Made by a program: the position numbers and the translations under genes. 64,000 nt of DNA from Escherichia coli (GTDB lineage Bacteria; Pseudomonadota; Gammaproteobacteria; Enterobacterales; Enterobacteriaceae), in assembly GCF_013315695.1 (NCBI RefSeq), contig NZ_CP054353.1; one strand, given 5' to 3'. Of the stretch, positions 8,974-10,839 are shown in pieces. Each line of letters opens with the position of its first letter. Within the stretch, counting starts at the first letter, position 1. Below the pieces are notes generated by a model that did no database searches, was not told the DNA's origin, and worked only from the letters and a program-made list of their open reading frames with translations.

Positions 8974-9152
8974 GAAAACCCAGTCCTTGCAAAGATGAAG
9001 TCGAAATGCGCGATGACACACTACTGAAAGCGGAAGGACGAGTAAAGTTGCAATTAAAAGGAAATGTTATGCAAAAGGAGCAGTAGAGTATTCGTTTTCA
9101 TTTAAAGATGTTCTTGCGCTTTAATTACAAACCGCACCGGTGTTGGTGGCGT

Positions 9153-9228
9153 CAAAATCGCTGAAGCGTTCCCCGAAGGCCGGGGCAGCCCACATGGATG
9201 TGGGCTGAGGGCGCGTCTTACAAGGATA
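9153..9228. repeat. left arm of a ~145-bp imperfect palindromic element interrupted by the IS
   Basis: Outer end CAAAATCGC (9153-9161) and inner GGGCGCG (9209-9215) are mirrored by GCGATTTTG (10671-10679) and CGCGCCC (10621-10627) on the other side of the IS. Contains its own 8-bp hairpin GCCCACAT-GG-ATGTGGGC (9189-9206). Confidence 0.4.
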
Positions 9229-9233
9229 ATGAG

Positions 9234-9244
9234 ATGGACGCTCC
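9234..9244 (+). repeat. left subterminal inverted repeat of the IS
   Basis: ATGGACGCTCC is the perfect reverse complement of 10599-10609. Confidence 0.6.
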
Positions 9245-9312
9245 AGATTTTACGGTATCAAAGTACCAGACTGGATCGTTGCAATACGTCCTGAAAAATT
9301 AGGGGCGTCCAC

Positions 9313-10338
9313 ATGAAAGTATCAACTCTTGGTATCGACCTGGCAAAGAACGTTTTTCAGCTTCATGGTGTCGATCATGAAGGCCATACTATTTTGCGTA
9401 AAAAGCTCACCCGGGCTAAGTTTGTTCAGTTTGTGATTCAACTGGAACCTTGTCTGATTGGCATGGAAGCCTGCTCATCCAGTCATTATTTTGCGCGATT
9501 ATTCACCCGCTATGGTCATGAGGTAAAACTCATACCTCCGCAGTATGTGAAGCCTTATGTGAAAACGAACAAGACGGATGCAGCAGATGCTGAAGCAATC
9601 TGCGAAGCGGTAACCCGTCCGAATATGCGTTTTGTTCAGATAAAAACCGAAGAGCAGCAGGCCGTTTTAGCGTTACACACTGAACGGGGAATACTTATCC
9701 GTGAGCGGATTGCCTGTGCCAATAGTTTAAGAGCCACACTTGCTGAGTTTGGTATTACGATTGCGGCCGGACAAAGCCATTTAACACGTGAGCTGCCAGC
9801 CATTCTGGAGGATGGCGAAAATGGTTTATCTCCCTTTGTCAGAACCAGCATCTACAGACAGTCTAAACATATCCGGGAACTTGAAGAACAAGTTAAACAG
9901 GTAGAAGAAGCTCTGGCCTCCTGGTATAGAACGCAGGAAGCCTGCCAGAGAATGGCCAAGATCCCGGGGGTTGGCATGCTAACGGCCACTTATGTGGTAG
10001 CAGCAGTGGGTAATGCCCGACAATTCAGTACCGCAAAGCAGTTCGCTTCATGGCTGGGGCTGACACCAAAGGAACATTCCAGCGGCGGGAAACAGCAACT
10101 GGGAGGGATCAGCAAACGTGGAGATGGATATTTCCGATACCTGCTGGTTCACGGCGCACGCGCACTTACCGCCTGGGTCAACCGAAACGGCGCGGTTGAG
10201 GAGAATTCCTGGCTTCAGGGACTCCTTGAGCGGAAGCACTACAATGTAGCTGTTGTCGCCATGGCGGCAAAAACAGCGAGGATCATGTGGTCAATGTTGT
10301 CACACAATACTGAATATCAACCTCGGCAGCTCGCCTGA
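9313..10338 (+). CDS. IS110-family transposase/recombinase (341 aa)
   Basis: MKVSTLGIDLAKNVFQLHGVD...MEACSSSHYFARLF... gives the N-terminal RuvC-like DEDD part. ...IPGVGMLTATYVVAAVGNARQFSTAKQFASWLGLTPKEHSSGGKQQLGGISKRGDGYFRYLLV gives the C-terminal Tnp domain with conserved Ser. Overall resemblance to IS4321/IS5075-type proteins as I remember them. Confidence 0.9.
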   Translation: MKVSTLGIDLAKNVFQLHGVDHEGHTILRKKLTRAKFVQFVIQLEPCLIGMEACSSSHYFARLFTRYGHEVKLIPPQYVKPYVKTNKTDAADAEAICEAVTRPNMRFVQIKTEEQQAVLALHTERGILIRERIACANSLRATLAEFGITIAAGQSHLTRELPAILEDGENGLSPFVRTSIYRQSKHIRELEEQVKQVEEALASWYRTQEACQRMAKIPGVGMLTATYVVAAVGNARQFSTAKQFASWLGLTPKEHSSGGKQQLGGISKRGDGYFRYLLVHGARALTAWVNRNGAVEENSWLQGLLERKHYNVAVVAMAAKTARIMWSMLSHNTEYQPRQLA

Positions 10339-10598
10339 CACAAGGTCAGTCAATCTGACGAGGTGCTGAAAAAAAGTTAACGTCCTGGTAGGTGCAGGTG
10401 ACTTCAGAAGATGGCAAAACAGGTAAGACCGCAGGCAGGATACACCGAGAGGTAACAAGGGCAAGTTAGCCCGTAGAGGATGATTGGTACCTGCCTGGCG
10501 GATTTCATCATGGTTCGGGATAAAAATCCCATCAGAAACCGGATATATGGCTGCACCTACCCGTTTTATTACATAACTGAAGAAAGCATTGCATTCCG
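10339..10598 (+). ncRNA. candidate bridge/seek guide RNA region of the IS (3' untranslated segment)
   Basis: 260 nt without an ORF between the transposase stop and the right IR, with several hairpins (GTCAG-TCAAT-CTGAC at 10347-10361, GGGAT-AAAA-ATCCC at 10518-10531). GAGGTAACA (10449-10457) is the exact reverse complement of flank TGTTACCTC (10613-10621). ACAAGG and GGATATATG match the flanks or the empty site. RNA ends are unknown. Confidence 0.35.
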
Positions 10599-10609
10599 GG
10601 AGCGTCCAT
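10599..10609 (+). repeat. right subterminal inverted repeat of the IS
   Basis: GGAGCGTCCAT is the perfect reverse complement of 9234-9244. Confidence 0.6.
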
Positions 10610-10610
10610 A

Positions 10611-10679
10611 TATGTTACCTCGCGCCCGACCCGGTAGCCGTAAGGGATAAGCCGAGGGCACCGCGCAGCGGCGATTTTG
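10611..10679. repeat. right arm of the imperfect palindromic element interrupted by the IS
   Basis: See the left arm (9153-9228). Inner CGCGCCC and outer GCGATTTTG mirror the left arm. Confidence 0.4.
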
Positions 10680-10698
10680 TTCGCCAGAGCCCGGGGGT

Positions 10699-10730
10699 GC
10701 AGGGGGCGGCGGCGATTGGCCGCCCCCTGC
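10699..10730. repeat. perfect 12-bp GC-rich hairpin
   Basis: GCAGGGGGCGGC (10699-10710), loop GGCGATTG, GCCGCCCCCTGC (10719-10730). The three overlapping ORFs here (10532-10771) look like GC-composition artefacts. Confidence 0.6.
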
Positions 10731-10839
10731 GCGCTCCTTGCGCCAGTGATTATATGAAGCAATGCACATGACAGGAGCGCAACAGGATGAGAGACTGAAC
10801 TATTCTCGTTATTTTCGGACCTGATGACATTAATTAATT

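Follow-up and report, generated by a model that had tools for sequence, protein, structure and literature searches.

The 64,000-nucleotide stretch of Escherichia coli contig NZ_CP054353.1 analysed here (hereafter the window) carries lysO (ybjE) next to yohP and mdtQ, with an insertion sequence (IS) and the two parts of a host repeat at the join. In K-12, lysO is located at 913,958-914,857 and yohP at 2,228,982-2,229,065. BLAST searches against two stretches of MG1655 matched window positions 1-9227 to K-12 905,885-915,111 (ybjS to lysO) in forward orientation with 96.8% identity, and positions 10612-17897 to K-12 2,229,293-2,222,000 (yohP to dld) in reverse orientation with 97.2% identity. The first-pass annotation of this DNA, made from the letters alone, had described a rearrangement junction at this place, and had given map positions of ~0.91 and ~2.19-2.23 Mb for its two sides, which the K-12 coordinates of lysO and yohP show to be correct. 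The gene orders that it gave, ybjS-ybjT-ltaE-poxB-hcr-hcp-lysO on the left and yohP-mdtQ-yohF-yohD-yohC-pbpG-dld-bglX-osmF-yehYXW-yohO-mlrA (inverted, up to 25027) on the right, are identical to those annotated in K-12, in IAI39 and in AF3 (NZ_OZ547117.1), the genome nearest to the window (30 mismatches over the first 30 kb). It was also right that aqpZ and dusC are missing, since neither aqpZ-ybjD nor dusC-yohJK had a BLAST match across the 64 kb. The analyses below confirm the join as real, and identify it as an endpoint of an inversion of 1.3-1.5 Mb that affects the terminus region.

The last gene of the 0.91-Mb block is lysO, on the reverse strand at 8074-8973, the same coordinates as the lysO annotated in the near-identical AF3 (the corresponding open reading frame in the program-made list extends to a GTG at 9021). 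It is followed by lysO-proximal unique DNA (9022-9131), the left part of the host repeat (9132-9227, forward strand), the IS (9228-10611, forward strand, 1384 bp), the right part of the repeat (10612-10790, forward strand), and yohP-proximal unique DNA (10791-10839). Beyond these lie yohP, on the reverse strand at 10840-10923, as placed by the collinear annotations of AF3 and IAI39 and by the reversed K-12 match, and mdtQ, an open reading frame on the forward strand at 11147-12583. Collinearity with the lysO side of K-12 (0.91 Mb) applies to the left of 9131, and collinearity with the yohP side (2.23 Mb, inverted) to the right of 10791. The IS, present in a single copy in the window, is the only mobile DNA in 9022-10839, in agreement with the first reading of the sequence.

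The host repeat is a GC-rich palindromic element found in K-12 in both the lysO-aqpZ and the yohP-dusC intergenic regions, in mutually inverted orientation, so the alignment bears out the earlier mention of two copies of such an element. The K-12 copies share 95.3% identity over 256 bp, and their longest exact run is 106 bp. The element is TRIP1a and TRIP1c (Rudd 1999; Li et al. 2024, PMC10888264), and has independently been named as the 222-bp Replication Risk Sequences (RRS) RRS-lysO and RRS-dusC (Pham et al. 2024, PMC10592627). The RRS pair lies ~650 kb either side of dif, contains a G-quadruplex, triggers lagging-strand gaps that are loaded with RecA, and has been reported to be conditionally essential in MG1655 (PMC10592627).

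In the window the repeat is a hybrid of the two K-12 copies. Its left part is of the lysO/TRIP1a type: it matches the lysO-aqpZ copy of K-12 in forward orientation and the yohP-dusC copy in reverse orientation at 90.7%, and the diagnostic sites at positions -65 and -62 relative to the IS are of the lysO type. The RRS core starts at 9143, and the left part ends in the target dinucleotide AT (9226-9227), which sits in the loop of a hairpin GGGCGCG...CGCGCCC. The right part is of the yohP/TRIP1c type: it continues directly into the K-12 match on the yohP side (97.4%) and is 93.3% identical to the lysO-aqpZ copy; the core ends at 10748, and the diagnostic sites from 10749 onwards are of the yohP type. 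Compared with K-12 TRIP1a, the two halves are 93% (72 bp) and 97% (145 bp) identical. The IS splits the RRS core into pieces of 85 and 137 bp, which sum to the 222 bp of the published element. An inverted-repeat pair in the right part, GCAGGGGGCGGC/GCCGCCCCCTGC (10699-10730, forward strand), would form a G-rich hairpin, and a G-rich tract, GGGGGTGCAGGGGGCGGCGGCG, can be read at 10692-10713.

The IS encodes a DEDD transposase, or RNA-guided recombinase, of 341 aa (9313-10338, forward strand), which matched the N-terminal DEDD (RuvC-like) domain PF01548 (56.7 bits, cutoff 29), the C-terminal IS116/IS110/IS902 domain PF02371 (87 bits, cutoff 21.3), and NF033542, "IS110 family RNA-guided transposase" (359 bits, cutoff 140). 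The gene is preceded by 85 bp of non-coding DNA within the IS (9228-9312) and followed by 273 bp (10339-10611). The left subterminal inverted repeat (9234-9244, forward strand, ATGGACGCTCC) and its partner on the right (10599-10609, GGAGCGTCCAT) are complementary at 11 of 11 positions, and are set back from the ends by 6 bp and 2 bp, respectively. In the IS1111 group the long non-coding region is downstream of the gene, and in the IS110 group it is upstream (PMC11187229). Because the downstream non-coding region and the subterminal repeats separate these two groups, the sequence features of the element assign it to the IS1111 group of the IS110 family.

We defined the IS boundaries by alignment with the uninterrupted K-12 repeats and by the exact empty site in strain KFu014; an AT dinucleotide is found at both junctions. 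The target, TTTTACAGGGAT/GTTACCTCGCGCCC (the slash marks the insertion point), is identical and in the same orientation at the lysO, dusC and yegH-asmA loci (12 copies examined), and it places the IS within the TRIP1 hairpin loop, GGGCGCG-TTTTACAGGGAT/GTTACCT-CGCGCCC. The empty site of KFu014 is exact and has a single AT, in a repeat that otherwise carries the single-nucleotide polymorphisms specific to SMS-3-5; we read this as a probable precise excision. Among the 5426 complete E. coli genomes over which all our genome counts were made, 175 carry the full-length IS, always at 99.3% identity or more and with a median of two copies.

The IS was also found, at the same target, in a diverged TRIP1-like repeat between yegH and asmA (e.g., in ECONIH1), which is absent from the five loci of Li et al. 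2024. By subtraction, this copy could explain most of the ~77 genomes with the IS outside TRIP1a and TRIP1c, three of which were checked. At the yohP-dusC locus of the O170:H18 strain CFIAFB20120266, TRIP1 and the IS are in the orientation opposite to that of K-12 TRIP1c, and the repeat has a right extension of the lysO/aqpZ type with different adjoining spacer DNA. The TRIP1 repeat therefore seems able to flip or to be replaced locally. AF3 also has a second IS110-family transposase gene, unrelated to this one (WP_000227970.1, from 946,950 onward), near a Qin-like prophage and within the inverted segment.

Elements of the IS1111 group encode a seekRNA in their downstream non-coding region (PMC11187229), and the corresponding region of the window contains two candidate guides. 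The first (10446-10457, CGAGAGGTAACA) is complementary at 11 of 12 positions to the right flank of the target, TGTTACCTCGCG; the second (10477-10482, AGGATG) is the same as the target top strand across the insertion point. Their order and their overlap in the target match those of the IS1111 seekRNAs (PMC11187229). The predicted fold of 10405-10530 (z = -3.3) has one long hairpin that holds both of them. In a shuffle test on the longest match, a 9-nt exact core, 97 of 2000 shuffles were as good. A scan of 8900-11100 with Rfam at an E-value of 1 or less gave nothing relevant, the only match being a chance one to mir-611. We regard these observations as suggestive, not as proof, that 10339-10611 encodes a putative seekRNA with these guides. 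When the right and left ends of the IS are abutted (10590-10611 to 9228-9240), they form a perfect TATAAT with TTGCAT 14 bp upstream, and in the integrated IS the AT of the target gives GATAAT at the left end. The abutted ends might thus act as a circle-junction promoter.

The same lysO-IS-yohP junction, with 98.5-99.9% identity, is present in 84 of the 5426 genomes. We searched for its reciprocal with a chimeric aqpZ/dusC query built from K-12, and found the aqpZ-IS-dusC junction, with the IS inverted, in 85 genomes. A query made of the junction only gave 51, probably because the gap of 1670 bp nears the joining limit, and we use the counts of 84 and 85. The reciprocal junction, which the first-pass annotation had named as the thing to look for, was thus found, including in AF3 and other close relatives of the window strain. 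In AF3 it lies at 1,689,383-1,692,797, and its IS runs in the direction opposite to that of the copy on the lysO side. IAI39, SMS-3-5 and AF3 all have both junctions, with two IS copies in opposite orientation, and hybrid repeats that combine an a-type left part with a c-type right part, and the converse. About 5340 of the 5426 genomes keep the K-12 order, so lysO and yohP are not ancestral neighbours. On the reciprocal side of AF3, dusC is followed by a 3-hydroxybenzoate/gentisate cluster (mhbT, gtdA, maiA) instead of yohJK, and an IS1 lies between aqpZ and ybjD.

An assembly artefact of a generic kind is excluded, as 84 independent assemblies share the junction. A more specific concern is that the window junction might be a misjoin across a 1.6-kb repeat, the source strain being in the K-12 order. 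Such a repeat exceeds the length of short reads, so that both the parental and the inverted joins are possible assemblies, and a discrepancy of this type does occur between the near-identical strains CE10 and IAI39. Against it, the five closest genomes, which come from three or more different projects, share the junction and its reciprocal; the 40 next-closest genomes are all inverted; and IAI39 and SMS-3-5, which are older and independently finished genomes, have the same arrangement. We therefore consider a misjoin extremely improbable.

The geometry of the inversion agrees with the earlier proposal of breakpoints roughly symmetric about dif. The K-12 repeats, at 915,111 and 2,229,292, are separated from dif (1,590,750) by arms of 676 and 639 kb. 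The AF3 junctions lie at ~0.153 and ~1.691 Mb, with arms of 845 and 691 kb to dif, which is at 999,068 and flipped relative to K-12. Hence, dif lies inside the inverted segment. No gene is interrupted, as the breakpoints fall upstream of lysO and on the downstream side of aqpZ, yohP and dusC. We tried GC skew across the junction as a signal of replichore polarity and discarded it as uninformative, local gene orientation being dominant at this scale.

The inversion is already known, having been described by Wang 2017, Goodall 2021 and Li 2024. SMS-3-5 differs from the K-12 group by a single inversion of 1.402 Mb, flanked by an inverted repeat "E" of 1606 bp that encodes WP_000868863.1 (Wang et al. 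2017, BMC Genomics 18:268). This protein is the transposase annotated at the junctions of IAI39 and SMS-3-5. The sites terE, terD, terA, terC and terB are inverted in SMS-3-5 (Goodall et al. 2021, IJMS 22:7928). A survey of 6725 genomes reported 137 TRIP1a/TRIP1c junctions and showed a TRIP1a/TRIP1c inversion of 1,313,407 bp in SMS-3-5 (Li et al. 2024, Genes 15:236, PMC10888264). The text of that study credits TRIP1 and does not mention an IS at the junctions. Neither natural IS insertions nor inversions are mentioned in Pham et al. 2024 (PMC10592627).

The first-pass annotation had put the inversion down to recombination either between two copies of the IS or between two copies of the palindromic element. 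Recombination between inverted repeats is supported; the choice between the two repeats cannot be fully separated, and the data favour the repeat extended by the IS. Together, the IS and TRIP1 make an inverted repeat of 1.64 kb with 98.4-99.2% identity and exact runs of 414-1498 bp, compared with 106 bp for TRIP1 alone. Of the 60 listed genomes with the reciprocal junction, 59 have the IS there; the exception is KFu014, which is inverted, has lost the IS from aqpZ-dusC and has kept it at lysO-yohP. The counts of 84, 85 and 175 allow for at most one inverted genome without the IS at the lysO-side junction, and at most one of the ~5250 genomes lacking the IS could be inverted. The IS is also found in genomes with the parental order: eight have lysO-IS-aqpZ, ten have dusC-IS-yohP, and five have both (CE10, XJ6.1, Res13-Lact-PER13-34, JNEC-KY178 and LR778147.1). 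We had considered XJ6.1 as an uninverted member of the inverted E50 lineage, and rejected this since its flanks are ~1.5-3% different and it belongs to an unrelated lineage.

These data lead us to think that the IS-extended repeat is the likely substrate of recombination. TRIP1/RRS is ancestral at both loci, in opposite orientation, and the site-specific IS occupies the same position of the repeat at both junctions, so that the two IS copies are inverted as well. In the scenario that we propose, homologous recombination of the RecA type between the IS+TRIP1 repeats would exchange their flanks and flip the terminus region between lysO/aqpZ (K-12 0.915 Mb) and yohP/dusC (2.229 Mb). An exchange inside the repeat, nearly symmetric about dif, explains why no gene is broken and why the hybrid repeats keep their orientation to the outer flanks; it would change replichore balance by just 37 kb with the geometry of K-12 and by 154 kb with that of AF3. 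This would have happened in a single or a few events in an ancestor of the clade that includes IAI39, SMS-3-5 and the window strain, and would have been inherited since. The loading of RecA on gaps at these repeats (PMC10592627) offers a plausible reason for recombination at these sites. Taken as a whole, homologous recombination between two inverted IS+TRIP1 repeats followed by clonal inheritance is, in our view, a quite probable account of the data.

One alternative is that the bare TRIP1/RRS repeats recombined, as Li et al. 2024 state, and that the IS came later and filled both hybrid repeats. The bare repeats are inverted, and 95% identity over 256 bp with an exact run of 106 bp is enough for a rare RecA-dependent exchange. 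RecA is loaded at TRIP1/RRS during replication (PMC10592627). The IS targets every TRIP1-type copy, including the diverged one between yegH and asmA, and its near-identity (at least 99.3%) in many lineages suggests a recent spread. Inverted junctions can occur without the IS, as in KFu014. Yet one would expect some inverted lineages free of the IS under this explanation, and the counts leave at most one inverted genome among the ~5250 IS-free ones. Furthermore, the empty junction of KFu014 looks like a secondary excision, given the SMS-3-5 polymorphisms and the IS kept at the other junction. The occupation of both junctions in ~84 genomes would also need many independent insertions, or an insertion right after the inversion. 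Hence, we find it unlikely that the bare repeats recombined.

The position of the exchange can be narrowed with the only informative pair of genomes, IAI39 (inverted) and CE10 (parental order), which have identical flanks. In IAI39, CE10 and SMS-3-5, the IS polymorphisms at positions 356, 388, 947, 974, 979 and 994 stay linked to lysO or to dusC, and the flank type has switched by position 1516. We infer from this linkage that the IAI39/CE10 crossover probably lies within the final 390 bp of the IS or the initial 131 bp of the right-hand part of TRIP1. The IS copies also seem to bear traces of exchanges with each other. The window copy is a mosaic of the two copies of AF3, of the lysO type at position 77 and beyond 1414, and of the dusC type at 421-1033, as ongoing gene conversion between the two would produce. 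Its six differences from the lysO-side copy of AF3, all within 9648-10260, match the dusC-side copy in six of six cases. The pattern suggests that gene conversion between the inverted copies covered a tract of 613 bp or more.

The crossover interval also bears on a different mechanism, in which the seekRNA-guided DEDD recombinase of the IS would itself have made the exchange, at the AT core of two right-end junctions. In engineered settings, recombinases of the IS110 family are able to invert DNA that lies between sites in a suitable orientation (PMC11208160). The interval takes in the right boundary between IS and target, and the IS looks intact, with a full-length transposase, subterminal repeats, a candidate guide and evidence of precise excision. 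But the usual pairing, of the excision type (left by right junction), would give an empty repeat and a tandem IS dimer, and what is seen is one IS per junction. No pairing of two right ends has been described for these enzymes; the crossover interval, at 520 bp, is too wide to give positive support for an exchange made by the recombinase; and the mosaic IS copies point to ordinary gene conversion. We thus regard exchange by the recombinase as very unlikely.

Homologous recombination between the IS-extended repeats, with subsequent inheritance, has nevertheless to be weighed against several observations that do not favour it. The window itself shows one junction, the reciprocal one being observed in its close relatives, the nearest of which have 5-6 mismatches to window 8000-12000 (all within the IS in the case of AF3). 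The interval that contains the crossover, from IS 995 to 1384 and a further 131 bp into TRIP1, spans both the IS and TRIP1 and cannot separate them, and the IS-target boundary within it makes it compatible with an exchange made by the recombinase. Five genomes have the IS at both sites without inversion, among them XJ6.1 with an exact run of 1498 bp, so that the IS-extended repeat is permissive rather than compelling. The flanks of the window differ from those of IAI39 and SMS-3-5 by ~2%, and the IS copies by only 0.1-0.5%, a contrast that fits either recurrence or one old event with flanks later overwritten. Finally, CE10 and IAI39 have the same flanks and opposite arrangements, which could come from a genuine flip or from faulty scaffolding of CE10 in its 2011 assembly.

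The distribution of the inversion among genomes fits a clade-wide inheritance, in a clade that also holds IAI39 and SMS-3-5 and that we take to be phylogroup F, formerly a subgroup of D. The 40 genomes that match the window best on the yohP side (at least 99.1% identity) are inverted without exception. Differences between inverted genomes amount to 0-1 per 2.5 kb on the dusC side and to 54-78 on the yohP side, which we read as the probable result of later recombination over an old clonal frame. The small differences between IS copies (0.1-0.5%) are compatible with this. We tend to favour one or a few old events. In Touchon 2009, IAI39 is placed next to B2, and rearrangements are treated in a general way only. 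A further idea, which we find doubtful, is that the inversion of the terminus region is a recurrent and reversible switch rather than one frozen accident, as the difference between IAI39 and CE10 would illustrate, with the IS, RNA-guided to both RRS loops, making 1.6-kb inverted repeats at sites where RecA is loaded in each replication cycle. If this were true, a whole clade of E. coli would live with both supposedly conditionally essential RRS split.

Other features of the window are less directly related to the junction. The mdtQ gene is an intact open reading frame in the window, in AF3 and in SMS-3-5; K-12 carries it as a pseudogene, and the copies of IAI39 and CE10 contain an internal stop. 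Directly past the inverted core block, at the 3' end of mlrA (yehV), lies a lambdoid prophage that extends from 25063 to at least 49600, with an integrase at 25063-26349 and genes for one tRNA-Met and two tRNA-Arg at 42692-42941. The mlrA gene is 687 nt long in the window and 732 nt long in KFu014, where the site has no prophage. The prophages of the window and of AF3 differ by an indel near 30109-31102.

As a rearrangement, the junction was a correct call of a published polymorphism, which by itself adds little. Its interest lies in joining three separate literatures, those on TRIP1 rearrangements, on repeat "E" of SMS-3-5 and on RRS, which do not cite each other on the key point. What is added here is that the RRS loop serves as the target of the IS, which is found in both RRS of essentially all inverted genomes. 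In ~1.6% of the complete E. coli genomes, a probably RNA-guided IS splits both native RRS, and all the DNA that separates them is flipped. These genomes are a natural test of the claim that the integrity and orientation of RRS shape chromosome topology. In practice, a pair of 1.6-kb repeats decides the orientation of 1.4 Mb in this clade, which matters for scaffolding and genome comparison.

The rearrangement is best compared with that of SMS-3-5 and IAI39, with which it shares the breakpoints (lysO/aqpZ and yohP/dusC), the hybrid repeat, the IS and the size class of 1.3-1.5 Mb; the inverted segment likewise takes in dif and the inner ter sites that were reported for SMS-3-5. The window differs in belonging to another sublineage, with flanks ~2% away from these two strains; the group nearest to its lineage is at 99.1%. 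Wang et al. 2017 listed the transposase-bearing repeat without linking it to TRIP1 or RRS. Like the symmetric inter-replichore inversions at IS or rRNA loci (Eisen et al. 2000; Wang et al. 2017), this one has inverted repeats at both ends, endpoints roughly equidistant from the terminus, and keeps strand bias and replichore balance. Unlike symmetric inversions that arise at random IS insertions, here the IS would be guided to pre-existing inverted host repeats that flank the terminus region symmetrically.

The host repeat corresponds to the RRS of Pham et al. 2024 (PMC10592627), a GC-rich element of 222 bp located ~650 kb from dif on either side, and the part that holds the G-rich tract (10612-10748) is intact in the window. 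In contrast to those RRS, the one in the window and those at both junctions of its relatives are split by the 1384-bp IS, and in the relatives the DNA between the two RRS is inverted. The IS resembles ISEc11, ISPa11 and ISKpn4 (PMC11187229) in its DEDD transposase of 330-350 aa, its downstream non-coding region, its subterminal repeats, and its use of one fixed target within a potentially folded repeat. Its candidate guides come in the same order as in the IS1111 group, with the complement of the top strand first, and likewise overlap in the target (PMC11187229). It is shorter than ISEc11 (1384 bp against 1433-1443 bp), and its target is the TRIP1/RRS hairpin loop, whereas members of the IS1111 group target GTGAAAATACTG, attC or REP (PMC11187229).

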